From positions 1-52,232 of the forward strand of contig PFOR01000009.1 in the NCBI GenBank assembly GCA_002792635.1: a stretch of 52,232 nt of DNA, written 5' to 3'. A program made the position numbers and the translations under genes. The first letter of the stretch is position 1. Each line of letters opens with the position of its first letter. Source of the DNA: Candidatus Pacearchaeota archaeon CG_4_10_14_0_2_um_filter_35_33 (GTDB lineage: Archaea > Nanobdellota > Nanobdellia > Pacearchaeales > GW2011-AR1). Shown here piece by piece: positions 5,589 to 46,397 of this stretch. The notes beneath the pieces were generated by a model. The model was given only the letters and a program-made list of their open reading frames with translations, was not told where the DNA came from and searched no databases.

Positions 5589-5639
5589 ATCAAAAAGTTC
5601 TTGTGTGTTTGAACTTTTGGATGCTCAAGAAACCTTGAC
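5589..5639 (-). mobile_element. small palindromic insertion element, copy 1 (51 bp)
   Basis: Minus strand ATTAT|GTCAAGGTT...AAGAACTTTTTGAT; same ends as copies 2-4. Confidence 0.75.
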
Positions 5640-5733
5640 ATAATAATCGCAGAACCCCAATCTTTCTGATACTCAAATCAAACGCCTACTGCCCAACATA
5701 AAAGTATACAAGAGTATCGTCCCTGCTTTAATC

Positions 5734-7041
5734 CTAGATAAACTTCCACTTCTTCAAAATCTTTTCCAGGTTCAAATCTTTCTCTTCTAAAGTATAAGTT
5801 ACATTGACAATCGGCTTTTTTGTCTTAATTATTGCAGATAATTTTATAGGCGTTCCGGAAACTACAACATCACAAGGAGTATTATTAATCGTGGTCTGCA
5901 ATTCCTGGATTTGTTTCTTTCCATAACCCATTGCCGGCAAAACATCAGTAACATGTCCATACTTTTCGTAAGTTTTCTTTATACTTCCAACAGCATACCT
6001 CTTAGGACTCACAATCTTAGCACCAGCATTCTTTGCTGCAATATATCCCGCCCCAAACTTCATACCTCCATGAGTTAATGTAGGCCCATCTTCAACTATC
6101 AATGCTCTCTTTCCCTTCAAATGATCTTTATCTATTTTTAATCTCGACGCAGCTTTAATTACACTAGCATTCGGATTAAATTTCTTAATATTTTCCTCAA
6201 TTTCCTCAATCCCTCCTTTAGGTGCCGTCTCAACTTTGTTAATAATTATTACATCAGCCATTCTGAAATTAGCTTCTCCCGGATGATAAATCATTTCATG
6301 TCCAGCCCTATGAGGGTCAGTAACAACAATATGTAAATCGGGTTTATAGAAAGGCAAATCATTATTTCCTCCATCCCACAAAATAATATCTGCTTCCTTC
6401 TCTGCCTCTTTTAATATCTTTCCATAGTCGACACCCGCATATATTACCATCCCTTTCCTTATCCACGGCTCATATTCTTCCCTTTCTTCTATAGTGCATT
6501 CATATTTGTCAAAATCCTCATATGTTTCAAATCTCTGCACCTCTTGTTTTATCAAATTCCCATATGGCATTGGATGCCTAATTGCAACAAATTTCTTGCC
6601 ATGTTTCTTTAACACTTCCGCGATTTTTCTTGTTGTTTGGCTTTTTCCGCATCCCGTCCTGACAGCACAAACACTGATAACTTTTTTTCTGCTCTTAAGC
6701 ATAGTCTCCTGACCAAGCAAAACAAAGTCAGCCCCATTTGCAATTGCGATGGAAGCTTCGTGCATAACAGCTTCATGGCTTAAATCAGAATGCGAGAAAA
6801 CAACATCATCAATCTTATATTTTTTAATCAGCACAGGCATATCAGATTCAGGAAAAATGGGAATATCTTTCTTATACAACTTCCCCGCAAATTCCTTCGG
6901 AAAATTTCTTTTATCAATTCCAGGTATTTGCTCAGCAGTAAAACATTTCACATCATAATCCTTATTGTCTTTATACTTCACCAAAAAATTGTGAAAATCC
7001 CTCCCGCCTGCACCTGAAATAACTACATTTCTTTTTTTCAT
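5734..7041 (-). CDS. arcE: cyclic 2,3-diphosphoglycerate synthetase-like P-loop protein, probable arginine synthetase (ArcE-like)
   Basis: GAGGRDFHNF, AVRTGCGKSQT, IRHPMPYG, CTIEEREEYE, WDGGNND, EDGPTLTHGGM; clustered with carbamoyltransferase and carbamate kinase genes. Confidence 0.75.
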   Translation of the reverse strand: MKKRNVVISGAGGRDFHNFLVKYKDNKDYDVKCFTAEQIPGIDKRNFPKEFAGKLYKKDIPIFPESDMPVLIKKYKIDDVVFSHSDLSHEAVMHEASIAIANGADFVLLGQETMLKSRKKVISVCAVRTGCGKSQTTRKIAEVLKKHGKKFVAIRHPMPYGNLIKQEVQRFETYEDFDKYECTIEEREEYEPWIRKGMVIYAGVDYGKILKEAEKEADIILWDGGNNDLPFYKPDLHIVVTDPHRAGHEMIYHPGEANFRMADVIIINKVETAPKGGIEEIEENIKKFNPNASVIKAASRLKIDKDHLKGKRALIVEDGPTLTHGGMKFGAGYIAAKNAGAKIVSPKRYAVGSIKKTYEKYGHVTDVLPAMGYGKKQIQELQTTINNTPCDVVVSGTPIKLSAIIKTKKPIVNVTYTLEEKDLNLEKILKKWKFI

Positions 7042-7237
7042 ATTTATTTAAGGAAAATTGTTTTTAAAAAACTATCCCAAATAGTTAAAAATACTTGGTT
7101 AAGTTATTTTCGTACAAAACTATTTGGGAAAATGCTTCTTCTCCACGATACTCAACATCTGCCCATCTTCTATCTCCTTCATGTGAAATTATCTGTTGTT
7201 TTCATTAAAGTCAACTCTTACCCCCTTATTTCTGGCT

Positions 7238-8503
7238 TTAACTTCCATCCCCACACCCCATGAAGTTACATATTTTTCCGGAATGCTTGAACCCTTTCTT
7301 TCTAATTTCTTTCATAGATTTTTCTAAAACACTTAAACCGACATCAATTTCTTTCTTATTGACAACATAAGGGGGAATCAATCTTATCCCTTTTTCTCCC
7401 GCTCCCAAAACTAATAATCCTCTTTTCGCAGATTCAATAACTAAATTATCTCTTTCTCTGGAATCCTGTAAGTCAAATGCGGTCATCAATCCCCTCCCCC
7501 TAATATTACCAACTTCAAGCTCATTCAACCTCTTCATCATATATTTCCCGTTCTTTCTGTTTTTCTGCAAGAGTTTTTCTTTCTTTATTATATCAATTGT
7601 TTTCATACCAAGCATCATATCAACGACACTTCCACCGCCCCATGTCGATGATAATGCTCCCGGCTCATCAGGAAACATATTGGAAACAGTAGCTCCTACC
7701 TGAAGAGCTTTAGCAGCACTAAACACGTCAGGCCTTATTCCATAATGCTCAAAGCTCCACCATTTTCCCGTTCTACCCATTCCAGCCTGCACCTCATCAG
7801 CAATATAAGGAATCTTATTATTCTTGCATATAGAATAAACACCCCTTACCATTTTTCTTTCAGGAACCCTATATCCTCCTTCTCCCTGTAAATGCTCTAA
7901 AATCACAAGCCCAACGCTCTGGCTTCCGTGTTTCTTTATTATATCTTTTAATTTATCTCCCGCACTTTCATCAAAAGGAAGTTCTTTATTCGGTTCTAAC
8001 ATATAACCCTTTCTATGGATTGGTTTGGAATGATGCAAACTTAATGCCCCAAGAGTTCTTCCATGAAAAGCCCCCTGAAAACTTATTGTAAATTTCTTTT
8101 CCTTTCTTTTCCGCATTGCAATCTTTATCGCATTTTCGACAGCTTCCGCCCCGCTGTTTGACAAGAAGGCCTGTTTCATCCCTTTAGATATAGAAAGAAC
8201 TTTGTCAATCATTTTTAAATGCTCTCTAACGGTAAAGTCCTGCCCGGCATATTTCACGGGAAAACTTTTCAAGGATTTTACAATTTTCAATAGTTCTGGA
8301 TGATTGTAACCAAGAGGATTTGTCGCTATTTGAGATGCAAAATCAAGAAATCTGTTACCATCAATATCTTCACAATAAACACCCCGCCCCTTGCCAGAAA
8401 ACACAAGAGGATGCGGAACACCATAACCTCCGTTTTTCTTCTTCAACTCTACAAGAAACCTCGCAGATTTTGGTCCCGGTATTTTTGTTTTTATATTTAT
8501 CAT
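7238..8503 (-). CDS. class III PLP aminotransferase (ornithine/4-aminobutyrate type)
   Basis: NSGAEAVENAIK, FHGRTLG, QGEGGY, DEVQAGMGRTG, SSTWGG. Confidence 0.9.
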   Translation of the reverse strand: MINIKTKIPGPKSARFLVELKKKNGGYGVPHPLVFSGKGRGVYCEDIDGNRFLDFASQIATNPLGYNHPELLKIVKSLKSFPVKYAGQDFTVREHLKMIDKVLSISKGMKQAFLSNSGAEAVENAIKIAMRKRKEKKFTISFQGAFHGRTLGALSLHHSKPIHRKGYMLEPNKELPFDESAGDKLKDIIKKHGSQSVGLVILEHLQGEGGYRVPERKMVRGVYSICKNNKIPYIADEVQAGMGRTGKWWSFEHYGIRPDVFSAAKALQVGATVSNMFPDEPGALSSTWGGGSVVDMMLGMKTIDIIKKEKLLQKNRKNGKYMMKRLNELEVGNIRGRGLMTAFDLQDSRERDNLVIESAKRGLLVLGAGEKGIRLIPPYVVNKKEIDVGLSVLEKSMKEIRKKGFKHSGKICNFMGCGDGS

Positions 8504-8545
8504 CTCTTTTTATTTCCAAAAATTTATTATGCGTCGGATGGTTAA

Positions 8546-8731
8546 TTATGCCTGAAACAAATAAAAGTATTTAAATCCTTGTTCATCCCAATGTATAAAG
8601 CATTCTTTAATAATTAGATTTTGAGAATTATCTCCAACAGAATGAGATTTAACCTTTTTCAGCAATCTAAAGGACACTTCTTTATCGTGATTTACAACCG
8701 CTTCTTTTCCAATCCACTTTAATGTAGGCAT
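8546..8731 (-). pseudogene. type III R-M Mod methyltransferase, N-terminal fragment
   Basis: MPTLKWIGKEAVVNHDKEVSFRLL...NLII, then diverges. Confidence 0.7.
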
Positions 8732-8732
8732 C

Positions 8733-9884
8733 TTATACAATCACCACATCTAAAATCTCGTGAGCAACAAAAAGTTTATTTCTTTCTTTTTCACTTGTAG
8801 GTTTTAGGATATTTAGTTTAATTAAATTTTGAACAGCTTTTTTTGCAGTAGGATAGGTGATATTTAATTTTTTGGCAACTTGGTTTATCCGTATAAAAGG
8901 ATTCATAAAAAGCAAATCCACCAAACTCAATAAATTTATTGCTTGTTTATGGTTTTTCGTTTTCTCTTGGTACTTCTCACTAAGTTTTTGAATTTTTATC
9001 GTTCTCTCCAATGCATCTTCAGATTGAACTTTTATTGCTTCTAAAAAGAACTTAATCCATTCTTCAAACTTGCCTGTTTTGTTTGCATTTAACAAAGTTT
9101 CATAATACTCTCTCCTATGTTTTTCAAAATAATCACTTGCATATAGAAGAGGTTTTGAAATTTTATTTTTCTTACAAAGATAAAGAGTAATTAATGACCT
9201 TCCGATCCTCCCATTTCCATCACAAAAAGGATGTATTGTTTCAAATTGATAATGCATTAAAGCACATTTAATCAATAAAGGCATTTCGTCGTACTTATTT
9301 AGATATTCTATTAACCCATTAACTAATTTTTCAACTTCTTCTTGAGGTGGGGGAACGAAAGTTACATCTTGAATTTTTGTATTTTTTGGACCAATCCAAT
9401 TTTGGACAGGTCTAAAATTTCCAGGTAAAAGCTCGTTACCTCGAACGCCCTTCATTAAAAGTTTATGCATCTCTTTTATTAGTTCTGTGTTTATTGGCTC
9501 CTTTTCAATTTTCTTTAAAGCATAATTCATAGATTTAAGATAATTTCCAACTTCTGTTGCTTCTATGTCTTCTTTTTCAATACCCTTGGCTTCTGTTAAA
9601 AAGTAGTCTGATAGAGAAATTCTTGTCCCTTCAATTCTCGAACTTGAAAGAGCTTCTTTTTTTAGATAAGGAATAACTAATAAATCTGGGTTTGGTAAAA
9701 GCAATCCTGCTCCAGAAAGTTTGCTTAGAGTGCTATCTGCTTTAGAAAGTGATAAAACCAATTGAGGAGTATAGTCAAAATTTGGAGGAAGTTTTTCTGG
9801 AATAAAGGATAAGTATTCCCCATGTTCTTCAGTTTCTTTCTTAACTAACTTCCCAAAAGCTCCTTTAAATTCAGAAGTTTCCAT
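8733..9884 (-). CDS. Fic family protein (with C-terminal wHTH)
   Basis: HPFCDGNGRIGR Fic motif; EALSSSRIEGT. Confidence 0.93.
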   Translation of the reverse strand: METSEFKGAFGKLVKKETEEHGEYLSFIPEKLPPNFDYTPQLVLSLSKADSTLSKLSGAGLLLPNPDLLVIPYLKKEALSSSRIEGTRISLSDYFLTEAKGIEKEDIEATEVGNYLKSMNYALKKIEKEPINTELIKEMHKLLMKGVRGNELLPGNFRPVQNWIGPKNTKIQDVTFVPPPQEEVEKLVNGLIEYLNKYDEMPLLIKCALMHYQFETIHPFCDGNGRIGRSLITLYLCKKNKISKPLLYASDYFEKHRREYYETLLNANKTGKFEEWIKFFLEAIKVQSEDALERTIKIQKLSEKYQEKTKNHKQAINLLSLVDLLFMNPFIRINQVAKKLNITYPTAKKAVQNLIKLNILKPTSEKERNKLFVAHEILDVVIV

Positions 9885-9990
9885 GATAATTATGATTGAA
9901 AAGACTATTTAAAACTATGTTTTCTTATTAAACAAAATAGGCAAATCGTTTAATAACGATTTTTCTTATTAAATGCTAATTTAAATACAT

Positions 9991-10179
9991 TTAATATAAT
10001 TGAATAAAAAGCCATTTATCATGCCTGCATAAATCTTGTGCTTCTCCACCAACAACTTTTCCCAACCACTTTTTTATTTTAGGAGAATTAACTTTATCAT
10101 TATAAACCCAATTTTCATTTCCAGTGTTATAGGGCGGGTCTATGTAAATACATTTTACTTTTCCAATATAATAAGGCAT
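9991..10179 (-). pseudogene. type III Mod methyltransferase internal fragment (DPPY motif)
   Basis: PYYIGKVKCIYIDPPYNTGNENWVYND...RHDKWL. Confidence 0.8.
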
Positions 10180-10374
10180 AAAATAATAGAAATTGTTGTT
10201 GTATTTTTGTCTTGTGAGCCGCCGCCTTTTTTGCTTCTTTTTTCTTAAAAAGAAGATGGGGGAGTTCTGTTGTTTTCCAAAAAATCAGGCAACCGAAGAA
10301 TATTTAAAGATTGAAATTGTAATAATACTAATATGTTCCCCGGTATGGCTTCGGCAATGCCGGGCACTTATATT

Positions 10375-10560
10375 TTATTCTTTTATCTCATTGATTATAT
10401 TATCTACACAAAACGATTTATCACAAGTATGTTTTAAATAGTTTGAAGAAGTTGATTTGAAATAAGCATTAATTACCTTCTTCCCTAATTTTTGTGCTTT
10501 CTGAATTGCGGGCACAAAATCTTCATCTCCAGAAACAATTATTGCAGTATCGTAAAGATT
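10375..10560 (-). pseudogene. C-terminal fragment of a NYN (LabA/DUF88) PIN-like nuclease
   Basis: Manual translation NLYDTAIIVSGDEDFVPAIQKAQKLGKKVINAYF...LKHTCD; no start codon. Confidence 0.75.
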
Positions 10561-10711
10561 TTGTATTTACTTTATTCTTAATCTCAAAGTAAATAGTTTT
10601 TGTTCCAAACAAAATTTTTGAATTCTCTTTTATTACTTTCTCAAATTCTTCTTCTTTTTTAAATTCAGTTTCTACAAACTTTTCTCCATCCATAAAAATT
10701 GCTGATTTCAT
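10523..10711 (-). pseudogene. N-terminal fragment of a hypothetical protein joined out of frame to the NYN fragment
   Basis: 62-aa ORF; ATGA overlap with the upstream gene; runs into the NYN remnant. Confidence 0.5.
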
Positions 10712-11319
10712 CTCTTTTGGTAAGGCGTTCCTCCATTAAATTTTAGTATACTCTCAACTAATTCAAACTCTTCTGAATCTGTTTGTAACTGATGAATACT
10801 ATAATCATATTTTGGAAATTCTTCTGTTAATTTTTTTAACACATTCAGGAACGTATCAAAGTAACTAATTCTTTTTTTATTTGATGTAAACTGAATAGGT
10901 AAATGGTTTGTGACTTTTACAATCTTTTTAGACAAATCACTAAGGTTATTATTATCTTTAGTTTTTATTTTAGAGTTTAGATGAATATCTTTATTAGTAT
11001 GATGATTCCTATCAAAATCTAAAAATAGTTGGATAGTTTCCTTTGAATCTATAATAAAAAACTCCATCAATAATAATCTTTCATCTTTATTTCTTTTAAC
11101 ATCTTGTGTTATTCCTTGGTATTGAATAGAAAACCACCTTTTATTTTCCTTGAATAATAACACTTCAAAACTATTTTTATAAGAATCGTAAGGAGATATA
11201 TAAATTATTTTTCCATTTTCTTTTATAGGCATTACAATTTCATTTAACAAGTTATCCCTTATTTCATTAGGATGATATTTATTTCTTAAACTTATAATAA
11301 ACTCCCCATTAGCTTCCAT
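10708..11319 (-). CDS. hypothetical protein
   Basis: 203-aa ORF in operon-like spacing; no family recognised. Confidence 0.65.
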   Translation of the reverse strand: MEANGEFIISLRNKYHPNEIRDNLLNEIVMPIKENGKIIYISPYDSYKNSFEVLLFKENKRWFSIQYQGITQDVKRNKDERLLLMEFFIIDSKETIQLFLDFDRNHHTNKDIHLNSKIKTKDNNNLSDLSKKIVKVTNHLPIQFTSNKKRISYFDTFLNVLKKLTEEFPKYDYSIHQLQTDSEEFELVESILKFNGGTPYQKR

Positions 11320-11321
11320 TT

Positions 11322-12095
11322 TTAAACATCCATCTTTTCTTCTGCTACTTCCTTAATCTTGTTTTGGATTCTCTCTTTAAACTCCTTTCCAAACTCATCA
11401 AATATTTCTAAAACTTCTTCATATGTCCCTTTTCCGCCTAAAAGTTCCCAGAATTTTTCAGCAACATAAAGCTCTTTTTGTTCATCCAAATATCCCTGCA
11501 TTGTAAATCTGCTATACGGTTCTGGATGATATGGATTATAAGGAATTGCTAAAATTGTATTAACTTTCTTTTTTCTGAGTGCTACCTATTCTAGCAATTT
11601 TTGTTTTGATTTGACGAAAACATCTATATTGGGCTTTGCCGTTTTTATCTCAATATAATATTCTTCATCTCCTTTTCTTAAAAATAAATCAGCCCTGATT
11701 TTAATTCTTCTTCCGCCGTTATTCTTGCATTTTAGAATTTCTTTAATCTCTTGTTCTTTATTGGCTGTTCTTGTTCCATTCTTTATTTCCTGAAGAATTT
11801 GAGAAATTACAGAGTTTTCTTCATTTGTAATTTCTCCCTCAACATCATAACCTGTTCTTATTTTGTCATAATTAGTTGAAGCAACAATTTTAGAGATTTT
11901 TTCATAAACAGACATCCCCAATGTTGTGGCTAAAGAATGTATGAAAGAGTAAGAAGCAACTTTTTCGGCATCCTGCATCAATTTAACCAAAAAGGGCATA
12001 GCAGTTGTTTCTCTTGCATACTTAGACAGCTTGTCATCTAACTTTAATTTTAACAGATTCTTTATTTCTTTAATTTGGTTTTTATTCAATGTCAT
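11322..12095 (-). pseudogene. TdeIII/MjaII-like type II restriction endonuclease, internal TAG at 11586-11588
   Basis: SFIHSLATTLGMSVYE, ADLFL..YYIEIKTAKPN, KLLE*VAL..AIPYNPYHPEPY..FWELLGGKGTYEE in one frame. Confidence 0.8.
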
Positions 12096-12185
12096 ATCAT
12101 AGGAAGATTGTCTTTTATTTATAAATACTCTGATTTCTGCGTAGCAGACCATTTATCCGAAGGATTAGGAACCCCCTAATAAATA

Positions 12186-12326
12186 GAAAAATTTTGGAGA
12201 GTGAACCGAACTATTTAATCATTGTTAGACAGAATTTTCAGCAGAAAATTTGTTTCCGTTTTCGTTAGTCGGATAAAAGAAGTTTTTCTCTATTGTTGAA
12301 AACAAAAGCTATTTGTTCGAAGGACT
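12186..12326 (-). repeat. cassette-leader repeat, copy B
   Basis: Reverse-complement homologue of 2269-2405. Confidence 0.8.
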
Positions 12327-12407
12327 GCGGGCAATCTCTCAAAATTATATGGTCGTCGCCCCCCCCCCAGAAAAATTAAAATTTTGACGAAGCCAAGCAA
12401 CAATGTA

Positions 12408-13865
12408 CTACTCTATCCCCTGTGCCTTCTGTAGCTTCCCGGAATAATCAAAATAAACTGCTTTTGTTTCCGAGAATTCATTAATTCCTTCAATACCTGC
12501 CTCTCTTGTTCCGTTTCCCGTACCTTTAACTCCCCCAAACGGAAGATGAACTTCAGCCCCGATTGTTGATGAATTAATATATGTAATTCCAGTCTCACCT
12601 TTATTTATAACATCAAAGGCCGTTTTCATATCCCTTGTATAAACTGCGTTTGATAGTCCATAATCAACATCATTTGCAATTTTGGTTGCTTCATCCATAT
12701 TTTTAGCTTCTATTATAGAAACAATAGGTCCGAATATTTCCTCCTGACATATTTTCATTTCACTCTTGCAATTAGTAAAAATTGTAGGTTCAAAGAAATA
12801 GCCCTTGCCTTTTATTTTCCTCGCCTTTCCTCCATGAAGAAGTCTGGATCCCTCTTCTTTACCAATAGAAACATAACTTGCCGACTTCTTAACAGCAGTT
12901 TCGTTAATTAAAGGCCCAATATCTGCCGTCAATCCAGAACCTAGTTTCAATTTCCTTACTCTTTTAACTAACATATCTTCAAATTTCTTTTTAATATTCT
13001 TATGTACCACGACTCTTGAAGATGCTGTACATCTCTGTCCTGTTGTTCCAAAAGCACCCCATATCACGCCCTCAACTGCCAATTCCAAATCGACGTCTTT
13101 ATCCACAATAATCACATTCTTTCCGCCTAACTCCAGACCAACTTTCTTAATTCCGGCTTTTTTCAGTATCAATTCCCCTATTTTCTTGCTTCCCGTAAAA
13201 GAGATAGCCCGAACATCAGGATTTGTAATCATTTCATCACCCACATCCTTTCCAGAACCTGTTACAAGATTAAAGACGCCCTTGGGCAATCCTGATTTCT
13301 CAATTATTTTTGCCAGCTCTATCGCGCAAAGGGGTGTATCCGATGAGGGCTTAAAGACGATTGTATTCCCACAGATTAATGCAGGAGCAATTTTCCAGGC
13401 AGGTATCGCAATAGGAAAATTCCATGGAGTTATTAGGCAACAGACGCCAACAGGATTTCTAACAGTCATGGCAAACTTATCTGGAAGTTCTGATTTTGTT
13501 GTATATCCGAAAAGTCTTCTTCCCTCTCCAGCCATATACTCAAAAATGTCAATGGCCTCCTGAACATCCCCTCTTGTTTCTTTCAAAACTTTTCCCATCT
13601 CTTTAACCTCTATCTTAGCAAGTCTTTCCTTTTCTTTAATCAAACAATCTCTTATTTTCCACAAATATTTCGCTCTTTCAGGAGCAGGCATATCTCTCCA
13701 TACAGGAAAGGCCTTTTTTGCGGACTTAATGGCTTTCTTAACATCAATTTTATCTGACTTCTGAAATTTCCCCACCCCTTGCTCTGTAGCAGGATTCAGG
13801 CTGTCAAAAGTCTTTTTAGAATCAGAAGACAACCATTTTCCGTTAATATAATTTTTATACACCAT
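12408..13865 (-). CDS. NAD(P)-dependent aldehyde dehydrogenase
   Basis: ITPWNFP, FTGS, LELGGKN, GQRCTA, EEIFGP. Confidence 0.95.
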   Translation of the reverse strand: MVYKNYINGKWLSSDSKKTFDSLNPATEQGVGKFQKSDKIDVKKAIKSAKKAFPVWRDMPAPERAKYLWKIRDCLIKEKERLAKIEVKEMGKVLKETRGDVQEAIDIFEYMAGEGRRLFGYTTKSELPDKFAMTVRNPVGVCCLITPWNFPIAIPAWKIAPALICGNTIVFKPSSDTPLCAIELAKIIEKSGLPKGVFNLVTGSGKDVGDEMITNPDVRAISFTGSKKIGELILKKAGIKKVGLELGGKNVIIVDKDVDLELAVEGVIWGAFGTTGQRCTASSRVVVHKNIKKKFEDMLVKRVRKLKLGSGLTADIGPLINETAVKKSASYVSIGKEEGSRLLHGGKARKIKGKGYFFEPTIFTNCKSEMKICQEEIFGPIVSIIEAKNMDEATKIANDVDYGLSNAVYTRDMKTAFDVINKGETGITYINSSTIGAEVHLPFGGVKGTGNGTREAGIEGINEFSETKAVYFDYSGKLQKAQGIE

Positions 13866-13906
13866 CTTTTTCCTAAAAAGATGCTTTAATTTATAAATTT
13901 TATGAA

Positions 13907-18338: not shown

Positions 18339-18377
18339 AAATCTACTTCCTTAGTGAGTATATAAATTTAATCAAAT

Positions 18378-24814: not shown

Positions 24815-25210
24815 ATGTCCTGGCAAATTTTACTGTTATCCGCAACATCTCTTACGTTAATACTATCTATGATTCTATTAATATTTCGATTCAAAACATC
24901 TCTCAAACTATTCTTTCCATTGATAACAGATTTGATTATGTCAAGGTTGCCGATGCAGAAAACTATGCACTTTAGTGCATTGATGAATGCAACCTTGAGC
25001 ATCCAAAAGTTCAAACAAACCCCACACTTTAATGGAGTAAAACATAAGAACTTTTTGATATTCACTATTGGATTCTCGCTAAGGTTATCCAAGAACCAAA
25101 ACATAATAGATATGGGCTATTTTATGACTGACATAAGTTTCTTGTTCATAGAAATATTGTTCACAATAGCTCTAATTCTTGGTCAGATGAAATACTGGAA
25201 GATTAATTAG
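24815..25210 (+). CDS. small membrane protein carrying an in-frame 120-bp palindromic insertion
   Basis: Hydrophobic segments flank a 40-codon insert derived from element copy 2. Confidence 0.6.
   Translation: MSWQILLLSATSLTLILSMILLIFRFKTSLKLFFPLITDLIMSRLPMQKTMHFSALMNATLSIQKFKQTPHFNGVKHKNFLIFTIGFSLRLSKNQNIIDMGYFMTDISFLFIEILFTIALILGQMKYWKIN
24940..25059 (+). mobile_element. small palindromic insertion element, copy 2 (120 bp, longest)
   Basis: ATTAT|GTCAAGGTTGC...GCAACCTTGA..ATCCAAAAGTTC...GAACTTTTTGAT; nested hairpins. Confidence 0.8.
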
Positions 25211-25842: not shown

Positions 25843-26067
25843 TTACTTCTTTTTCTTTTCAGCTCTAGAAATCATTTCTTTTTTCAATCCCAAGAAGATA
25901 CCACCCTTCTTTCCACCGACATAGCTATTTTCTCCTGGCTTAATGATATCATTCAGCTCATCCAGTTCAACATCAACATGCGTGACTGTAGCTCCAGACT
26001 TGCCTTTAACATGAACATACACATCTGCCTTTCCTAAATGTATCTTTCCTTCTGCTTTCCCACTCAT
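25843..26067 (-). CDS. small hypothetical protein
   Basis: 74-aa ORF; ATGA overlap with the upstream gene. Confidence 0.7.
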   Translation of the reverse strand: MSGKAEGKIHLGKADVYVHVKGKSGATVTHVDVELDELNDIIKPGENSYVGGKKGGIFLGLKKEMISRAEKKKK

Positions 26068-26851
26068 CTTACACTAAAATCAACCATCACAGGAAGATAG
26101 TCAGAATAATTTAATTTTAGAACTTTATAATCTTTGACTTTAATTCCTCTTGTAAGGACATAATCGAATCCCTTATCTGGATAATAAGAAGGGAATGTAT
26201 TGCCCCTCTTAGACATTTCCAGGTCTGTTTCCTTTAATAGATCTTTTAATTTGCTATCTCCTTTAAAGGTATTAAAATCACTCATTAAGATTAGAGGGCT
26301 CTCGATTTTTCCCACAAAGTTTTTCAACTCATCAATCTGCCTTCTCCCATCTCTTTTCCCAAGAGCCAAATGAACTAGCATCAATCTTATCTTTTTTCCA
26401 ACGTTAATGTCGCCCTCAATGACGACTCTCTTAACTCCTTCGTGAAACTCTTCTCTTTTAACACCAGAAATTTTATTCTTAGAAAGAATGGCATTACATT
26501 GTTTATTCATCACAGGAATCCTCTTATATCTTTTTCCATACTTTTCCGCAACAACTCTATGCTTCAATCCCAACTCCTTGGTGAAATGGCATATTTCATC
26601 ATGTTTCTCCATAAATGAATTCTTGCTAATCTCAACCAATGCAAGAATATCTGGATTATGTTCTTTCAGCTCTTTTATTATGTCAAGGTTGCATTCATCC
26701 ATGCACTGAAGTGTTGGGTAAAACATAAGAACTTTTTGATCTTATAATCTATCATACTAGGATGTCTAAACCTTCTCCAAAATTTCAGATATCCCAATTT
26801 TCTTCCAGTCAATCCCTCGAGATATTCAATATTGTAAAGTATCAATCTCGT
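26064..26851 (-). pseudogene. endonuclease/exonuclease/phosphatase (EEP) family gene frameshifted by element copy 3
   Basis: RLILYNIEY...MIDYKI|IKELKEHNPDILALVEI; SDFN and SDYLPV instead of GDFN and SDHLP; start codon appears as ACG. Confidence 0.75.
26682..26740 (+). mobile_element. small palindromic insertion element, copy 3 (59 bp)
   Basis: Same termini; removing it restores the EEP reading frame. Confidence 0.85.
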
Positions 26852-26906
26852 CGTGAAAAACGGGGGATGCTAAACTTTAAAAGCCCTTTTATATCACTAT
26901 TATCAT

Positions 26907-34300: not shown

Positions 34301-34302
34301 TT

Positions 34303-37781: not shown

Positions 37782-37784
37782 ATT

Positions 37785-38643: not shown

Positions 38644-38696
38644 CCTCCAAAAACATCAAACGAAAAGTTTAAATATTTCATAGTTCTATAATAATC

Positions 38697-38782
38697 ATGC
38701 AGGGGGACGCAACCTGACGAAAGCCACATACACTTATGTGCTGGTGTGGGGAGTAGGATTGACGGACGCCATAACCCTACAT
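38697..38782. ncRNA. candidate structured ncRNA downstream of a DUF3800-like gene
   Basis: GC-rich island in AT-rich DNA; stems GTAGGGTT/AATCCTAC and CACATA/TATGTG; alternative closing stem ATGTAGGG/CCCTGCAT. Confidence 0.5.
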
Positions 38783-38800
38783 TTATTTTGTTTTCTTGAG

Positions 38801-39268: not shown

Positions 39269-39461
39269 CTTTTAAAACGCCTCCTAGCTTTTTATTAACC
39301 TCTTTCTGCACAAGCTCTCTCAATTTTTGATGAAGGCTTTTTGGTTTACCATTTATGCCCTCGGTTTCGCAGATCTTCATAAGGTTGGCAAACTCCGAAC
39401 GATAAAGCTTAGTTGAGATAACTCGTCTTTCTTCACCTCGTAAAGGATTCTTTTTTACCAT
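39258..39461 (-). CDS. small putative ribbon-helix-helix regulator
   Basis: RVISTKL beta strand followed by two helices; overlaps the downstream gene. Confidence 0.55.
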   Translation of the reverse strand: MVKKNPLRGEERRVISTKLYRSEFANLMKICETEGINGKPKSLHQKLRELVQKEVNKKLGGVLKDEV

Positions 39462-39518
39462 TCAAAATACAAAAATGGAAAGTATATAAAGATTGCTATA
39501 AATCGGTCTACCGATTTT

Positions 39519-39875
39519 TTAATTATGTGCAAGTATTGGGCTAGCAAACTCTGTCTTTCTTAATGGGGGCATTGGTTGAGAGAATTGCTTGCCTTTTGAT
39601 TGTAACACAACTAAAAGCATCCATTGATTTCTAAAACTTTTATATTCAATTCTTGCAGAGTTTAGTTCAGATAAAAAACTCTTATTTATCTCAGGATTAA
39701 ACGAACCAAAAAATTCACTAGCATCCATTATTTCTATTCCAACAACCCCATCATCACTATCCAAGTCAAGAACTATTCCTTCTGACACCTCCAAACTTTC
39801 TTTAACATCTTCATTATGTTCATAAATAACTAAAATATCATTCTCATCATCGTAGTCGTATTTCATATTATTCAT
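39519..39875 (-). CDS. DUF2283 family protein (putative antitoxin)
   Basis: YDYDDENDILVI...LDLDSDDGVVGIEIMDAS. Confidence 0.82.
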   Translation of the reverse strand: MNNMKYDYDDENDILVIYEHNEDVKESLEVSEGIVLDLDSDDGVVGIEIMDASEFFGSFNPEINKSFLSELNSARIEYKSFRNQWMLLVVLQSKGKQFSQPMPPLRKTEFASPILAHN

Positions 39876-40207
39876 TGTATTTCTAAGTTTTTAAATCTTT
39901 TTTTGTTATATTTAGACAAGGTTTTCCTACCTAGAGGATAGGCAGTAATTACTCTTAATCTATCTCTAATAGTTATTATGTAAACTCTGCCTTTCCTTTT
40001 TGAATAAACATAAAATAGTGCATATCTTAATTCCTTATTGACTCTTTGCTTTTCAACAAATTTCAAATTTTTAAGAGAAAACAAATCCTCAACTACTTCT
40101 TCTTTTGTTGCCTTTATTCTATTCAAGAGATATTTTTCCAATTTTCCAAACTCAAAATCCTCTTTAGAGTACTTTTCTAATAACTCTTTAGCCTCTTTTA
40201 TTTCCAT
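39872..40207 (-). CDS. putative RelE/BrnT/DUF4258-like toxin
   Basis: Basic 111-aa protein with RVITAYP, directly upstream of the DUF2283 gene. Confidence 0.6.
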   Translation of the reverse strand: MEIKEAKELLEKYSKEDFEFGKLEKYLLNRIKATKEEVVEDLFSLKNLKFVEKQRVNKELRYALFYVYSKRKGRVYIITIRDRLRVITAYPLGRKTLSKYNKKRFKNLEIQ

Positions 40208-40208
40208 T

Positions 40209-42953
40209 TTATTTCCATCTCAATTCTTTACATTTCTTAACAACATGTTCTAATTGCTTTAATGTAAACTTATCTAATGGCCTTTCTTCTGTTAAAGGAT
40301 GTTTAGCTAAATCCTTTAGTTCAATATGCTTTGTCCTAACAAAAACTTCTTTTAATAATCTTAAAAATTTTAATTGCTCGGAGTTGTAATGCTCATTTCT
40401 TGAAAGTACATACTTATCAAATTCCATCTTTATAATCCCTTCAGGATCAGGAAGGTCTTTTAACCCAATTATTTGCCTCAAAAAGATAACAAAATCAACC
40501 TTAAGGATATTCTGCAAATTATCAATAGTCCAAGTAGGATTTAAACCAGAAAGCTTTTTTTCAATCTCTAAGAGTTCATCAGAAGTTACACCTTCACCAA
40601 ACCTAATTTTTTTAATAAGTGAATCTTTTTCTAAAAGCTCAATTAAATCAGGGTTCTCTTTAATCTCGTGCTTTATTTCTTCAACACTTAAAACAATATC
40701 CGGAGCATTTACTCTTAACATCTTTTTCCTGTCCTTTTCGTAATAAATCAATAAAGGGGCTATTTCTCTAATTAAGAAATCAGCATCATCAAAAGTCAAA
40801 TCACCCCAAAACTTATCACCTAAGACTTTTTTCAGTTCATCACTTTTTGCCTGCACAACTTCTAAACCTTTCTCCCAAATGTTCTCAACTCTTTCTTGAA
40901 CAAAATCTTGAACTTTCCAAATCTTATCCTTATCATCTTCTTTTATAGCATCAAATAGCTTAACGCACTGAGATATAAAATAATAAACCTTTGAATTATC
41001 TGTTTTAGAGTAAATCAATAAAGGGGCTATTTCTTCTTTCAATGTTTTTATGTGGTCTTTTAATTCAAACTTTTTAGAAACAACTTTTTTAATAATTGAG
41101 GCTTTCTCCATAACAACAGGAGAATCCATATCAATTGTCTTTATAGTATCTCTAATTTCTTTTTCTAATATTTTTCTTTGCTTATCATCAAGCTTTTTCT
41201 TTAATAAATCAACTTGTTCTAAGAAAATTCTTGTTTTAGCATCCATCACAGCAGATTTAGCCCTTGATTTGTCAAGCTTATGAAAAATTACATTTGAATG
41301 ATCCCCAAACTTAAAATCTAAAATTAAAAAGTTCTCTTTGACATGGATTCCATCTTTTGAAGGCAATCTATCTTTAAATCTACAAGCTTCTAAATTTCTT
41401 GTTCCTCTTCCCAACATCTGCCAAAATCTGATAGGAGAGAAAACAGGCCTTACAAAAACTAAATTACATATTTCAGGAATATCTACTCCAGTATCTAAAA
41501 CACCGACAGATAAAGCAATTCTAGGTTCATCATATCTATCAAATCTTTTAACTTCATCCATATACCTTGACCTATCTGAAGTTATAACCCTCACATCTTT
41601 AGCTAAAACAGGATATAACTTATCAAAGATTTCTTTTAATGAATCAGCATGTTTTACACTAGCACAAAAGAAAATAGTCTTACATGGCCTACCATCATCA
41701 GATTTATAGCAACGATCTACAAATTCTCTAACAATAAGTTCATTTGTTCTGGCATCTGTAAAATACCTCTCAAACCTTGTTCCCGGAAGTTCTGCCACCT
41801 CAGGATTTTCTTCTTGTTCCTTAAGAGCCTGTTTTAAATCCTTAGTTAATTTTGCCCCTTTAATTCCAAGAGTTAAAACTTGAGTATCAATAACATCCGC
41901 AACATAAGGCACTAAAACATTATCATTAACAGCAGTATCATAATCATAAGCAACTGTTGGCTTTTTATATTCACAATCAAACAAATCAAAAGTATCTCTT
42001 GTTTCCTCACTTGAAGGAGTTGCTGTAAGCCCTAATTTTAAACAATCAAAATACTGAAATAAAATATTATTCTTTTCATAAAAAGATCTATGGGCTTCAT
42101 CAAACACAATTAAATCAAATTCTGCAACTCCAAACTTTTCAAACATAGGCCTTTTTCTTTTATTGTCGTCATCGGTAAGAGTTTGAACTGTTGACGTATA
42201 AAGTGTAGCTGTATCTGAAAAACCTTCAACATTCAACTCACAAACAGGATCTGAAAAAAATGACTTAAACCCTCTTTCCTTAGCTTGATTTGATAATGAA
42301 ATCCTATCAACAACAAACAATACATTCTTAACATAACCTGCTTTAATTAAAGCATCAATAATAGCCATAGATACTCTTGTCTTTCCTGTTCCTGTTGCCA
42401 TATTGATTAAGGCAGATCTATGGCCTTTTTCATAATGCTTAAGAATCTGTTTAACTGCTTCTATACTTCTGGCACGATCAACTATTTTTTTATTTAACTT
42501 AACTTGGGAAGGTTTAATCTCATGCTCAAAAAGATATGCTCTTCTATGAAGGTCTTTTTGTGAAAAAGGAAGTAAAACTTTTCTCCTTCTGTCTTTTTGG
42601 TCTATAAAATACCATGTTTCTCCATTAGTGAGAAAAATAGGAATTGTTTTTTTGAGTTTTTTCTCAATATCTTCTTGATAAGTTTTTGCTTGTATCTCCC
42701 CTTTCTTAAAATCTACCGAACTTCTCTTTGCTTCAATAATGGCAAGAGGAGAGTTATTTTCATCTAAAAGCAGATAATCAATAAATCTATCCTTCCCTCT
42801 TTCAACCTTTCCACTAAAAGGAACATACTCTTTAGTTTTAAAATTAGATTTGAGAGAGTTTACTTCTTCCTTAATATATTTCTTCATCCATCCAACTAGC
42901 TCTAGCTTTGGATCTATTATTTTTTTTCTTGTGTCTTTCTCTGATAAGTCCAT
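40209..42953 (-). CDS. hsdR: type I R-M restriction subunit (EcoAI/EcoEI-like)
   Basis: SEKDTR..IDPKL, IEAKR, MATGTGKT, DEAHRS, LTATP, QMLGRGTR. Confidence 0.95.
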   Translation of the reverse strand: MDLSEKDTRKKIIDPKLELVGWMKKYIKEEVNSLKSNFKTKEYVPFSGKVERGKDRFIDYLLLDENNSPLAIIEAKRSSVDFKKGEIQAKTYQEDIEKKLKKTIPIFLTNGETWYFIDQKDRRRKVLLPFSQKDLHRRAYLFEHEIKPSQVKLNKKIVDRARSIEAVKQILKHYEKGHRSALINMATGTGKTRVSMAIIDALIKAGYVKNVLFVVDRISLSNQAKERGFKSFFSDPVCELNVEGFSDTATLYTSTVQTLTDDDNKRKRPMFEKFGVAEFDLIVFDEAHRSFYEKNNILFQYFDCLKLGLTATPSSEETRDTFDLFDCEYKKPTVAYDYDTAVNDNVLVPYVADVIDTQVLTLGIKGAKLTKDLKQALKEQEENPEVAELPGTRFERYFTDARTNELIVREFVDRCYKSDDGRPCKTIFFCASVKHADSLKEIFDKLYPVLAKDVRVITSDRSRYMDEVKRFDRYDEPRIALSVGVLDTGVDIPEICNLVFVRPVFSPIRFWQMLGRGTRNLEACRFKDRLPSKDGIHVKENFLILDFKFGDHSNVIFHKLDKSRAKSAVMDAKTRIFLEQVDLLKKKLDDKQRKILEKEIRDTIKTIDMDSPVVMEKASIIKKVVSKKFELKDHIKTLKEEIAPLLIYSKTDNSKVYYFISQCVKLFDAIKEDDKDKIWKVQDFVQERVENIWEKGLEVVQAKSDELKKVLGDKFWGDLTFDDADFLIREIAPLLIYYEKDRKKMLRVNAPDIVLSVEEIKHEIKENPDLIELLEKDSLIKKIRFGEGVTSDELLEIEKKLSGLNPTWTIDNLQNILKVDFVIFLRQIIGLKDLPDPEGIIKMEFDKYVLSRNEHYNSEQLKFLRLLKEVFVRTKHIELKDLAKHPLTEERPLDKFTLKQLEHVVKKCKELRWK

Positions 42954-43036
42954 AAATATAACAAGATAAACCGCTTAAAAAAGCTATCTTAATGTAAGTT
43001 CAAACTATCTTAATCACTGGAATTTTCATAGTCTCT

Positions 43037-43366
43037 GTGGTTTCTATTGCTGCAATAATAACCGTTCTAGTCTTATTTGTTCAAAGCATTGTTTTAGCCT
43101 TTGCAATCACTATCGCAACAATATTCTTCTATACAATGAAACGACCCCCTCTAAGGGTGTATTTCCATAGATTTATTCTATCGGAGTTAAGGGCCACAAT
43201 AGGCTCAATGGAAACAATAGTCCTTTCGGTAGCAAGTATAATTGCAATTCCTCTTGTTGGTTTAGCAGTAGACATATTAGGACCAAGAATAGCTATATTC
43301 CTTTCAGCAATACTATTAGCCCCAGGAATTATAATATTCTATAAAATCAAAGACGCTAAGAAATAA
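43037..43366 (+). pseudogene. MFS transporter 3' part
   Basis: LRATIGSM..IAIPLVGLAVDILGPR C-terminal MFS helices; same strand as the 5' part at 32425. Confidence 0.7.
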
Positions 43367-43428
43367 TTTCTCATAAAATAAAAAAGAGAGAAAGTTAAAA
43401 AAAATAAAAAGAAAAAAGGAAACAAAAT

Positions 43429-44655
43429 TTAGTAATAACTTTCTCCGAACTCTTCGTTCTTCTCAGGCTTCCTTGTCAATAGAACGATAAGAACAATTAA
43501 CAAGACTATAAAGATTATAGCCAAGATTATTGTTAGAACAACAGCAGCGGAATCGCCACCGAATGATGTTCCTTCAACTCTAGCTGTAAAGTTTTCAGTC
43601 TGGATAAGTCCTTCATCGCTGTGTACGTTTACGGTAAAGCCATAGTTTCCTTCCTTGCTAGCATCTGCCGTGAACTTAACAGTTCTGGCAGAGCCGGCAG
43701 GAACAACTACTATTGACTCGTCAAAGTCGACATTCAAACCCTCATCAGCATCTACGATTAACTCGTAAATCTTGATTTCATCGCCTGCATTAACCAAGGT
43801 AATGCTGTAACTTCCTTCTGAACCAACAGCAAAATCATCAGAATTAGATCCTGAATAAATTGTGCTTTTATCAGTGGAACCAACAACAACAATTCTCTTG
43901 ATAACAGTTGTAGTGGAGTCATCGTTGTAAGCAGTAACTTCAATTTCGTAAACACCAGTCTCTACATTGGAAGGTAGCATCAAATACATCCTTCTTTCAG
44001 CAGAGTCGTGTTCATCTTCATCAACTCCTTCGATTGGGTCTTTAGGTGCAAGATCGCCAAAGTAGGCTCTTGTATTTATTCCCAATACAGGAATTTCTGC
44101 TTCAACAAATGTGTCTTCAGCCTCATGTCTTCCTCTGTTCTTCAAAACAATGTCCAAGGCAACGCTTTCACCTGCTTCAACCTCTGTACTAGGGGTATTA
44201 ACAGACAAAATTTCAACCTCGTAGTTGCTTCTCTGAACGTTAAGGTCTACATGATACTCAACGACAGATCCGTCTTCTGTTTCGATGGAAATCTCAAGGG
44301 TTCTTTCTTCGTCTGGATCAATCTTGTAAGGCAAACCGATATGTAGGTTTTCTCTGTAAGTGCTTTCAGCTATTACATCAAACCTTTCAGTTGCTTCAGA
44401 AAGTCCAGGCTCACCAATTATTCGAGCGTAAACTCGGACATCGTCCTTGTCTTCGTTTGCTGTAAATTTAACTGCAATAGCTACAGTTTCACCAGCAGTA
44501 ACAGTTGCACTTTCTCCTTCTTCATAAAAGATGCCATCAACCCAGACACCGTTTATGGTGGCGAATGCACTTACTGTAGGAGCTAAAACTAGCACCAACA
44601 AAAACACTGCGACAAGTGAAGCCAAAACATTTTTGGCTCTCATTTTGGTTTCCAT
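43429..44655 (-). CDS. cell-surface protein with Ig-like/CARDB-type domains and a C-terminal TM anchor
   Basis: Signal peptide, acidic beta-rich body (LKNRG, LVNAG), TM segment + RKPEKNEEFGESYY. Confidence 0.8.
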   Translation of the reverse strand: METKMRAKNVLASLVAVFLLVLVLAPTVSAFATINGVWVDGIFYEEGESATVTAGETVAIAVKFTANEDKDDVRVYARIIGEPGLSEATERFDVIAESTYRENLHIGLPYKIDPDEERTLEISIETEDGSVVEYHVDLNVQRSNYEVEILSVNTPSTEVEAGESVALDIVLKNRGRHEAEDTFVEAEIPVLGINTRAYFGDLAPKDPIEGVDEDEHDSAERRMYLMLPSNVETGVYEIEVTAYNDDSTTTVIKRIVVVGSTDKSTIYSGSNSDDFAVGSEGSYSITLVNAGDEIKIYELIVDADEGLNVDFDESIVVVPAGSARTVKFTADASKEGNYGFTVNVHSDEGLIQTENFTARVEGTSFGGDSAAVVLTIILAIIFIVLLIVLIVLLTRKPEKNEEFGESYY

Positions 44656-44779
44656 TTTAGTTTAGTTGATAATTCAACCAATAACCCTTTTATAAACTTT
44701 ATGGTGACAACAATGTTGTTATATTATGTAGTAACAAATAAGCAAAAAATATATAAATGGTATACCAAAGTATATATCT

Positions 44780-44995
44780 ATGAAATCGACGACAAAACAA
44801 CAAAATAATGAAATAACCACTATCAAACTTTCCAAAAAAACAAAGGCTAGATTAGACAATTTAAAAACATATAAAAGGGAGACTTACGAGGATACAATAT
44901 CCAAAATCCTTGGTATACTGAACTTATGTAAGGTCAATCCAGCCCACGCCAAGTCAAAATTGCTACAGATAGATAGACAGAAATTATTCAAGTAA
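44780..44995 (+). CDS. small RHH-like DNA-binding protein
   Basis: ITTIKLSKKTKARLDNLK..ETYEDTI. Confidence 0.7.
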   Translation: MKSTTKQQNNEITTIKLSKKTKARLDNLKTYKRETYEDTISKILGILNLCKVNPAHAKSKLLQIDRQKLFK

Positions 44996-45745
44996 TTCCA
45001 GACCTTCAATACAATCGTCAATCATATCAGGACTCTCATTTATCAGGACCACATCCTTTTCTGGCAGGTTTTTGAATAACTCTTTCCATTCCTTTCTCCC
45101 TGTTTTCCTGTGTTTCTTCTCTCCCTTCTCCCCATATATGATGCCAGAAAAATGGCAATGCCATTTCTTTCCTGGGAAAAGCCTTCCAATCTTATCGTAA
45201 TCAACCTTCTTATCTCTCGCAAGAATATGCGCAAAATCAATACACGCAGAACATCCAGCATCCTTGCATAAATTAGAAATTTCTTCAATGCTCCCAAAAA
45301 CATTCACTTTTCCCATAGTCTCAGGATAAAGCTCCACTTTCCAGCCATTCTTTTTTATAACAGACATAATATCTTGGATTCCAGATTTTATCATATCATA
45401 AGCCCCTTCTTTATTCTTTCCATAATACCCCGGATGGAATACTACTCCTGAAGCTTTCAACCAGCTAGCAACCTCACAACAAGCTAGAATCCTGGTCTTG
45501 CTAGCCTCTCTCTTTTCCTTTTCCTGGCTATTCAAATTAACAAAATATGGAGCATGAATGCTTAATGAGATTCCAAGCTCTTTAGCCTTCTTTCCTATCC
45601 TGACAGCATCCTCCTTATTCTTAATATAAACACTATAAGTGAATGCAATCTCACATGCCTTAAATCCGAGTCTATGATATTCTTCCAGCCTCTCCTCAGC
45701 CTCCTTAACACTTCCTAAACCTGCCGGCCCTATTTTTATTGCCAT
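44984..45745 (-). CDS. nfo: endonuclease IV family (AP endonuclease 2)
   Basis: SIHAPYFVNLNS, FHPGYY, PETMGK, CIDFAH, HCHFSGI. Confidence 0.9.
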   Translation of the reverse strand: MAIKIGPAGLGSVKEAEERLEEYHRLGFKACEIAFTYSVYIKNKEDAVRIGKKAKELGISLSIHAPYFVNLNSQEKEKREASKTRILACCEVASWLKASGVVFHPGYYGKNKEGAYDMIKSGIQDIMSVIKKNGWKVELYPETMGKVNVFGSIEEISNLCKDAGCSACIDFAHILARDKKVDYDKIGRLFPGKKWHCHFSGIIYGEKGEKKHRKTGRKEWKELFKNLPEKDVVLINESPDMIDDCIEGLELLE

Positions 45746-45794
45746 ACTTATTGCTTTGAACAAATCTTTTTATATTTTCTCTAAAACCAGAATT

Positions 45795-46397
45795 CTAAAA
45801 CCTTAATAAATTATTATTACACACTTCCAAAAGAATTTCATGAGGTCCCAATCTATCAAACTCAATTGGATTTTGGATAATTAATTCAGGCATTCTAAAA
45901 CTACTATTATATTCATCGGCAGGAACTCCGAAAATGCATATTTTCTAGTAGCATTAGTTACATTTCAGATACCATTCCATTGCCAATCAGCGAAATGGGC
46001 TCTATCGACAACAAAAGCCCCATCACTAGGTAAGATCTCAAATTTAACTCCCATTATATATATTATCATATGAAAATATCCTAATACCTACTTGCAAAAT
46101 ATCCCATTCTCTTCCTCCATACTCATAATCTTGCCAAGATCTTGGTGCTTTTTCGTTAGGAAAAGCGTAAATGTAGCCATCGCGAGCTCAGTTTGGCAAT
46201 CCAGGAACACTACCTAATGGAACAAGTCTTCTATTTGGCTTAAGGGTTTTATCCTTCCTCTCTTTTTTCAATTTCTTCCAATTATCTATTATTATGTCAA
46301 GGTTGCTTGAGCATCCAAAAGTTCAAACAAACCCCACATTTTAGTGTGGAGTAAAACACAAGAACTTTTTGATGTAATGGAATTCAATCTTTACCAT
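45795..46397 (-). pseudogene. degraded hypothetical gene disrupted by element copy 4, stops and frameshifts
   Basis: MVKIEFHY|IIIDNWKK...GLPN*ARDGYIYAF; later FVVDRAHF and MPELIIQNPIEFDRL in other frames. Confidence 0.55.
46296..46373 (+). mobile_element. small palindromic insertion element, copy 4 (78 bp)
   Basis: Same termini; internal CCACATTTTAGTGTGG hairpin. Confidence 0.82.

Follow-up and report, generated by a model that had tools for sequence, protein, structure and literature searches.

Short hairpin-built elements behind TTAT in a Pacearchaeota genome: a gene-less family probably derived from IS200/IS605

The window analysed here is the whole 52,232-nucleotide (nt) stretch of contig PFOR01000009.1 (C14) from the 776,861-bp, 27-contig assembly of Candidatus Pacearchaeota archaeon CG_4_10_14_0_2_um_filter_35_33 (~35% G+C; completeness 89%), and it carries four copies of a short palindromic element. 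Copy 1 lies on the minus strand at 5589..5639, and copies 2, 3 and 4 lie on the plus strand at 24940..25059, 26682..26740 and 46296..46373, exactly where an initial annotation, made from the letters of the window, had placed them. Each copy stands directly 3' of a TTAT motif, at 5640..5643 on the minus strand for copy 1 (ATAA on the plus strand) and at 24936..24939, 26678..26681 and 46292..46295 on the plus strand for copies 2 to 4, and in 4/4 cases this motif is part of the ATTAT that the annotation had reported. The common ends that it described are also borne out: GTCAAGGTT has 4 occurrences in the window where 0.44 would be expected, a count that 1/100 shuffles reached, and AAGAACTTTTTGAT is likewise found exactly 4 times.

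The interiors of the four copies are different combinations of hairpins, as the annotation had proposed, and can be described by two optional hairpin modules. Copy 1 is the 51-nt minimal form, lies between genes, breaks no open reading frame (ORF) of >=80 aa, and consists of an outer left hairpin (TCAAG/CTTGA), a GCATCC linker and an outer right hairpin, with nothing else. Copy 2 is the 120-nt full form, in which a left compound hairpin (24941-24998, plus strand; inner hairpin ~24963-24982) is followed by a GC linker and a right compound hairpin (25001-25059, plus strand; inner hairpin ~25020-25037), and its last bases are TGAT. Copy 4 is a 78-nt form that joins a minimal left hairpin to a full right compound hairpin. 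Copy 3, which lies inside a gene, is a rearranged 59-nt recombinant of both inner hairpins that has lost GAGCATCC and runs from the left outer arm through an inverted half of the left inner hairpin and the 3' half of the right inner hairpin to the right end. Folded as single strands, copies 1 (as two hairpins), 2 and 4 give z values of -3.13, -2.81 and -1.70, and copy 3 no longer folds (z +0.82).

Over the whole genome (776,861 bp), 28 copies are complete and another 3 are partial. This is far beyond what chance would give, and the family is real; its ends are kept across the 28 complete copies, and the expectation from four copies in the window that it would be abundant here was confirmed. 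By size, the complete copies comprise 51 nt (n=6), 59 nt (n=1), 76 nt (n=4), 78 nt (n=5), 95 nt (n=3), 100 nt (n=1), 120 nt (n=3) and 122 nt (n=5); together they occupy 2,414 bp, at a density of ~40 copies per Mb, and at 51-122 nt they are too short for a transposase gene. The partial copies are cut at a contig end (C12:42231), lack the left end (C21:9728-9803) or have a decayed right end (C26:4421). TTAT lies directly 5' of 28/28 complete copies, against a background of 0.00997 per position, and TTTTTGAT stands at the right end, exactly in 24/28 and as a close variant in the rest. Beyond the right end, T is found at +2 in 25/28 copies (background 0.34, p 2.4e-9; window examples at 25061, 26742 and 46375), and bases -7 and -6 are mostly T, so that the occupied site reads as a T-rich TTAT|N-T.

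The folded design was examined in a whole-length alignment of 21 full copies from 7 genomes (this one and the relatives G011, G032, G104, G125, G158 and G181). The full 120-122-nt form consists of two compound hairpins with the invariant GAGCATCC between them, the consensus fold leaving GC between the left and right hairpins, and each compound hairpin is an outer stem around an optional GC-rich inner hairpin with a TTTA loop. On the left, the outer stem TCAAGGTTGC/GCAACCTTGA surrounds an asymmetric loop (CGATGCAGAAAA ... ATGAAT) and an inner hairpin of 8-9 bp with the TTTA loop; on the right, the outer stem ATCCAAAAGTTC/GAACTTTTTGAT extends to the final base and surrounds another inner hairpin of this type. 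The consensus fold has 35 pairs, and 96.0% of its 727 cells are paired, compared with 26-43% when partners are slid by 1-3 columns. Both-side changes occur in 20/35 pairs, the observed covariation was reached by 0/500 shuffles, and all four stems covary across the 7 genomes. The invariant bases are the first GTCA, the core TGA.CATCC (the base between being >=90% conserved), the last TT.TTGAT, AA before the left inner hairpin and, in 21/21 sequences, CAA before the right one. Only ~5-7 nt match in inverted orientation between the two ends, and the element has subterminal palindromes, not long terminal inverted repeats.

In the shorter forms (51, 59, 76, 78, 95 and 100 nt), which are versions of the same element, one or both inner hairpins are missing, or the hairpins have been recombined. 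The 76- and 78-nt forms lack the left module, the 95-nt form lacks the right module and the 51-nt form lacks both, and the left module is inverted in two copies, at C6:11134 and in window copy 3. Two of the 51-nt copies, C22:1322-1372 on the plus strand and C22:2763-2813 on the minus strand, are inverted relative to each other, have common private substitutions (TTCAAGG..., CAAATACATAAAAAC) and bracket a Pyr_redox_2 gene (1709-2761), an arrangement resembling either a local duplication or a composite-like unit.

The gene around copy 3 belongs to the endonuclease/exonuclease/phosphatase (EEP) family and is read on the minus strand. Its upstream, N-terminal arm (26741..26869; 43 codons) aligns to the N-termini of 6/6 intact homologues, and its downstream arm (26064..26681) matches Pfam PF03372 (Exo_endo_phos) at profile positions 23-204. 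The six homologues are 242-261 aa long with 40-57% identity, and the two arms abut exactly where all six run on, with no column missing or doubled. By this comparison, copy 3 is evidently a precise insertion into the Exo_endo_phos gene. A 220-aa ORF (26064-26726) starts at an ATG within copy 3, and this truncated ORF is on record on 26 contigs.

The initial annotation had further proposed that precise removal restores continuous coding sequence at copies 2, 3 and 4, which stands for copy 3, where the arms abut against the six homologues, and does not stand for the other two. Open frames do run across the junctions of copy 2 (64+49 codons) and copy 4 (26+61 codons), but the arms match no Pfam family at E<=0.05 and the same-genus genomes do not keep either stretch, and so copies 2 and 4 were not accepted as interrupted genes. 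Copy 4 sits in a 670-bp stretch, 45764-46432, that has no ORF of >=80 aa and is flanked by an endonuclease IV-like gene and a 145-aa gene; matches to these two genes lie ~62 bp apart in the same-genus genome G001 and ~720 bp apart here, and the stretch is variable DNA that houses copy 4.

Across the genome, 7/28 junctions fall in ORFs of >=100 aa, compared with 80.2% of 15,998 TTAT sites (binomial p 4.7e-10), and several copies lie 5-40 bp from gene ends. Persisting copies are thus mostly intergenic, as is usual for such elements, and the description of the family as a cause of gene inactivation was an overstatement. A Pfam search of 57 flanking frame segments gave only three matches that abut an element (EEP, NUDIX and CNNM), a fourth, Pyr_redox_2, being an intact gene that begins just after a copy. 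The NUDIX box fragment stops at the element at C18:13503. The CNNM fragment (C19:949-1200; profile positions 2-53 of 181) ends exactly at the element at C19:1125, and an unrelated gene lies beyond it, which places this element at a deletion or rearrangement breakpoint. By eye, the flank of C19:5684 looks NUDIX-like and that of C25:36069 looks like a low-molecular-weight phosphatase; neither gave a scoring match. An archaeal bulge-helix-bulge intron or a translational bypass, considered in view of the copies that lie in frames, was set aside by inspection, no splice-motif search being made: element lengths are often not multiples of three, most copies are intergenic, and the orientation of the element relative to spanning open frames is mixed. 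The 3' flank is not conserved, and the helix with the downstream exon that such introns need therefore cannot be general.

The element also occurs in related archaea. Relatives of the 120-nt copy are present in 9/41 related genomes, the host genome counted, and the family in 23/201 genomes sampled from the order, with only 4 candidates scored per genome. Outside the host genome, it was found in 21/155 genomes of the same taxonomic family and in 1/45 genomes of eight other families. Identity drops to 71-89% in the relatives, and the stems carry compensatory changes. Left flanks in the relatives are mostly TTAT, with TGAT, TTGT, TTCT, CTAT and TAAT also seen. One locus (L115) holds a head-to-tail pair joined as ...TTTTTGAT|GTCAAGG, and hairpin sequences of 20-60 nt are nested in the loops or in the GAGC|ATCC core at L106 and L109 (G032), L111 and L114 (G021) and L018 (G011). 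In public metagenome-assembled genomes (MAGs), at least 9 true copies were recognised, by a filter on left and right ends, among 118 listed loci with a 15-base core word, most of those listed being chance matches, and at least five of these nine carry titles naming Woesearchaeota, Pacearchaeota or Nanoarchaeota. The element was found in 0/121 listed viral loci, the 15-base core word being too short for such collections. A literature search found no description of this element; the word searches were limited, and the supplements of papers might list the family.

The inner hairpins connect the family to IS200/IS605 insertion sequences. Y1_Tnp genes are present in 47/201 genomes of the order, and 47 tnpA loci were examined, 30 from the order-wide Y1_Tnp matches, of which only part were taken, and 17 from other searches. 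The left ends of these tnpA elements run outer stem, GAAATC, GC-rich hairpin with a TTTA loop, ATGAAT, outer stem, and the left end of the element shares this design and these words (GAAAAC, hairpin, ATGAAT). The tnpA right ends read GGAAAC, hairpin, then AGGATGTCA, and another subfamily finishes in CAAGAT. Element hairpins matched tnpA-adjacent hairpins at 19/19, 20/21 and 18/18 positions (blastn-short). A Y1_Tnp match is present in 12/23 family-bearing genomes compared with 35/178 others (odds ratio 4.5, Fisher p 0.0013), where related genomes are not independent and the same 201 genomes are assumed for both counts.

In this genome, the bases 5' of the inner hairpins also fit a published pairing. 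In IS608, guide base 1 pairs with base -3 of the cleavage site, guide base 2 pairs with base -4, and base -2 is free (as described in PMC3201880); the pairing of base -1 with guide base 4 is an extension of that rule made here. The rule predicts AA.A for TTAT and CA.A for TGAT, and the element has AAAA on the left and CAAA on the right, such that the one guide difference (A to C) matches the one site difference (T to G). The TTGT and TTCT flanks of relatives fit TT.T, and the L005 copy also fits, with CAAA and TGAT. The guide register, 4 nt before the 8-bp GC-rich stem, was chosen by the analyst, and the rule is therefore supportive, not proven. In IS200/IS605 elements, flanking and terminal motifs are described as resembling each other (PMC10055086), and here the flanking TTAT and the terminal TGAT do likewise.

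Taken together, the fixed 5' motif, the terminal TGAT, the subterminal hairpins, the likeness of the inner hairpins to those at Y1 tnpA genes of the same order and the fit to the IS608 guide support the derivation that the initial annotation had put forward, and the family is probably a gene-less, non-autonomous IS200/IS605 derivative resembling the palindrome-associated transposable elements (PATEs) of haloarchaea. A Y1 (HUH) TnpA, supplied in trans, would bind the hairpins on one DNA strand and cut behind both the flanking TTAT and the terminal TGAT; a single-stranded circle would be released and would then be pasted 3' of another TTAT without target duplication. The data establish the family with its ends and fold, its presence in related genera, one precise gene insertion and the resemblance of its hairpins to those linked to tnpA, and from these the enzyme, the single-strand route and any present-day activity are inferred.

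Several observations weigh against this derivation or fall outside what it predicts. The full-length parent with the same ends that the initial annotation had suggested was not found: the termini of the element surround the gene in 0/47 tnpA loci, whose right ends are AGGATGTCA or CAAGAT and not TTTTTGAT, and single terminal-word matches at L047, L058 and L071 were read as chance and not as elements. The genome's only Y1_Tnp match (C22:17353-17625; covering 7-96 of the 121 profile positions, plus a detached piece in a different frame) is a broken remnant that is followed by a TTTA-loop hairpin and lacks element-type ends, and the nearest element copies on its contig are >11 kb away. No Y1_Tnp match was found in 11/23 genomes with the family. 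A TnpB match was likewise not found in the element-bearing genomes searched, the host (G000) and five relatives, with PF07282 (over the cut-off) sought in G000, G011, G014, G016, G021 and G032 and PF01385 in G000, G011, G014, G021 and G032. The left inner hairpin that TnpA would bind is missing from the 6 51-nt copies and 9 76-78-nt copies, and the right one from the 51-nt and three 95-nt copies, and yet these short copies each stand behind their own TTAT. The T at +2 is not predicted by the IS200/IS605 model, and copies at L275, L003, L107 and L133 do not fit the guide rule. Stem mismatches are about equally G.T (18 cells) and A.C (15 cells) by manual count, marking no strand as active, and the 8 full copies are only 87-97% alike (mean 93%), giving no sign of a very recent burst.

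Nor was an empty site seen, either in the same-genus genomes G001-G003 or in contigs of four public sequencing runs. In G001-G003, the DNA identity of genes is only ~65-76% and the sequence between genes cannot be aligned; the two genomes that matched (G001 and G003) lack the EEP gene at the syntenic position, and G001 lacks the copy-4 stretch. The region was found in 24 groundwater or aquifer runs, no RNA run being listed, and four of these (X19, X22, X23 and X24) were examined as contigs, in which rare variants are lost. Copy 3 is spanned by contigs that contain the element in 2/4 runs (X23 and X24), and a joint leaving out an entire element was seen in none of the four. A single joint was seen, which passes over 44 nt (24951 to 24996) and stems from copies without the left module; the contigs bear on neither polymorphism nor expression. 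Contig depth over copy 2 is ~80-158 in the four runs, compared with ~5-6 in the adjacent sequence, as would be expected for a repeat whose many copies have collapsed. Around this copy (24904-25105; runs X19 and X22-X24), assemblies break inside the element and the summed contig depth is ~15-25x that of the flanks. The element family fragments metagenome assemblies of its host organism.

The short copies that sit uneasily with a TnpA reading are the starting point of an alternative in which the outer stems, GAGCATCC and the ends are the working parts and are recognised by some enzyme distinct from the IS200-type TnpA of these genomes, such as a different HUH nuclease or a recombinase cutting at the foot of the long stems, with the inner hairpins as passengers in the loops. 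The 51-nt forms (n=6) keep only the outer parts and each stand behind their own TTAT, the two such copies at C22:1322 and C22:2763 have common private substitutions, GAGCATCC and the terminal bases are invariant in 7 genomes where the inner stems vary, the termini are unlike those of all 47 tnpA loci, other mini-elements insert in hairpin loops in relatives, and the T at +2 (25/28) suggests a target wider than a 4-nt motif. However, no enzyme emerged as a candidate, the inner hairpins fit the guide rule, and the short forms could come from recurrent hairpin deletion after insertion; the Haloquadratum study leaves open whether its 52-bp terminal-only forms move (PMC3119063). The full form is conserved across genera with compensatory changes and is therefore favoured as the ancestral working unit, which leaves movement by such an enzyme unlikely. 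A similarly doubtful extension is a two-layer element, in which a 51-nt backbone of two plain hairpins and the invariant GAGCATCC, with ends cut at the feet of the stems and the target TTAT-N-T, would be the true mobile unit and IS200-type hairpins would be captured or exchanged in its loops. It would account for modules that come and go or are inverted between copies and for the mini-elements nested in these loops in relatives.

Two further explanations set the IS200/IS605 connection aside altogether. Strong covariation of the four-stem structure, the position of 21/28 copies outside ORFs of >=100 aa and the location of several copies 5-40 bp from gene ends are what might be seen for a structured RNA gene or a host-recruited palindromic signal (a repetitive extragenic palindrome (REP)-like sequence, a terminator or a protein-binding site) that is no longer mobile. 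This is quite unlikely, given that the element has no Rfam match at gathering score (the window gives 3 tRNA matches only, and copy 2 reaches E 2.1 and 9.6 bits at best), that one copy lies inside a gene and breaks it, and that modules are present, absent or inverted between copies; nor does G.U exceed A.C among mismatches (18 vs 15), so that selection on one RNA strand is not favoured, and copies do not surround the tnpA remnant in the way that REPs surround their associated transposase genes. The other explanation is a classical MITE (a miniature transposable element with inverted repeats), moved by a DDE transposase with duplication of an AT dinucleotide, the element proper being GTCAAG...TTTTTG. 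Every copy here has AT on its left and AT as its last two bases, and the ends carry TCAA[G/A] in inverted orientation. The genome has one DDE_Tnp_1 gene (IS4/IS5-type; G000:C12:10880-11404, minus strand), its only such match, in a 409-codon open frame with one in-frame TGA. Neither similar termini nor matching inverted repeats were seen at this locus, however, and searches of the 89%-complete genome for DDE_3 and rve gave no match. In inverted orientation the ends agree over only ~5-7 nt, and the asymmetric flanks (TT before AT; N, T after) are not predicted by a two-fold symmetric cut. An AT end persists in relatives whose left flank is GT or CT: in three of their copies, with TTGT (2 in G011) or TTCT (L263) on the left and GAT at the right end, there is no left/right repeat. 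The suggestion in the initial annotation that a 2-bp AT duplication fits equally well therefore stands within this genome, where the two are inseparable, and is weakened by the TTGT and TTCT relatives; overall, a DDE-moved MITE is very improbable.

Elsewhere in the window, genes look archaeal by ORF reading, for example a DnaG-type primase and RNase HII, and a 126-nt Rfam tRNA match at 448-573 that was not called by ARAGORN is probably an intron-bearing tRNA gene.

As a probable gene-less IS200/IS605 derivative, the family places a dense set of relics of this type in a genome of <1 Mb from a little-studied archaeal group. It offers a natural data set on the features that have to be conserved, namely both stems, the cut sites and the bases preceding the hairpins, which all covary across genera. 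Its copies mark genes that are split (EEP family) or end abruptly (NUDIX, CNNM), and are therefore useful markers of gene decay and rearrangement where a genome has been reduced. The 51-nt forms, if mobile, would be among the smallest transposition substrates known, and, if the two-layer reading were true, the smallest self-sufficient substrate would be ~50 nt and these small-genome archaea would hold a community of hairpin-only mobile DNAs, each targeting the loops of others. In published surveys, a 2024 census describes high MITE densities in some DPANN genomes, one Woesearchaea genome included (PMC11602168), and a 2026 survey describes IS200/IS605 as the most widespread insertion sequence family in archaea (PMC13343696).

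One close comparison is with IS608 and IS200. As these are described (PMC3201880, PMC10055086), insertion is 3' of a tetranucleotide, TTAC in IS608 and TTAT here, a related tetranucleotide stands last (TCAA in IS608, TGAT here), hairpins are subterminal, and the four bases 5' of the hairpins, in the register chosen here, fit the cleavage sites by the published pairing (PMC3201880). Unlike IS608, the element lacks tnpA and has extra outer stems, and the distance from hairpin foot to cut site is 23 and 22 nt, compared with 19 and 10 nt in that description of IS608.

The nearest elements in print are the PATEs of Haloquadratum walsbyi and other haloarchaea, which are described as derived from IS605-type transposons, with palindromes near their ends that resemble those of such transposons and without inverted repeats or duplications; terminal-only forms of 52 bp occur that may still move, and small repeats insert into the palindromes (PMC3119063). 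Set against that description, the present family likewise has no terminal inverted repeats, palindromes near both termini, a non-coding length and a fixed 5' motif; its palindromes resemble those of tnpA/tnpB-bearing elements, it has terminal-only forms of about the same ~52-bp size and small repeats nested in palindromes, and the transposase genes of the genome are mostly or wholly broken. It differs from PATEs, as so described, in its host, a small-genome archaeon with MAG relatives labelled Woese-, Pace- or Nanoarchaeota, in its two-tier ends, where an outer stem that reaches the element end surrounds an IS200-like inner hairpin, and in that searches of 6 genomes with the element turned up no tnpB and no parent with matching termini was found.

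REPs are single palindromes of 20-40 nt with a 5' GTAG-type word, and the gene for the REP-associated tyrosine transposase (RAYT) is flanked by REPs. The present element departs from this: it combines two unlike compound hairpins and its ends are fixed, one of its copies sits in a gene, and no copies flank the tnpA remnant. With bacterial REPs, bacterial interspersed mosaic elements (BIMEs) and RAYTs, the subject of PMC2817692, it has in common short, abundant and mostly extragenic palindromes and an evolutionary tie to Y1 HUH enzymes. Among these systems, the family is a known kind of element, and what is unusual is its host and its two-tier, modular hairpin build.

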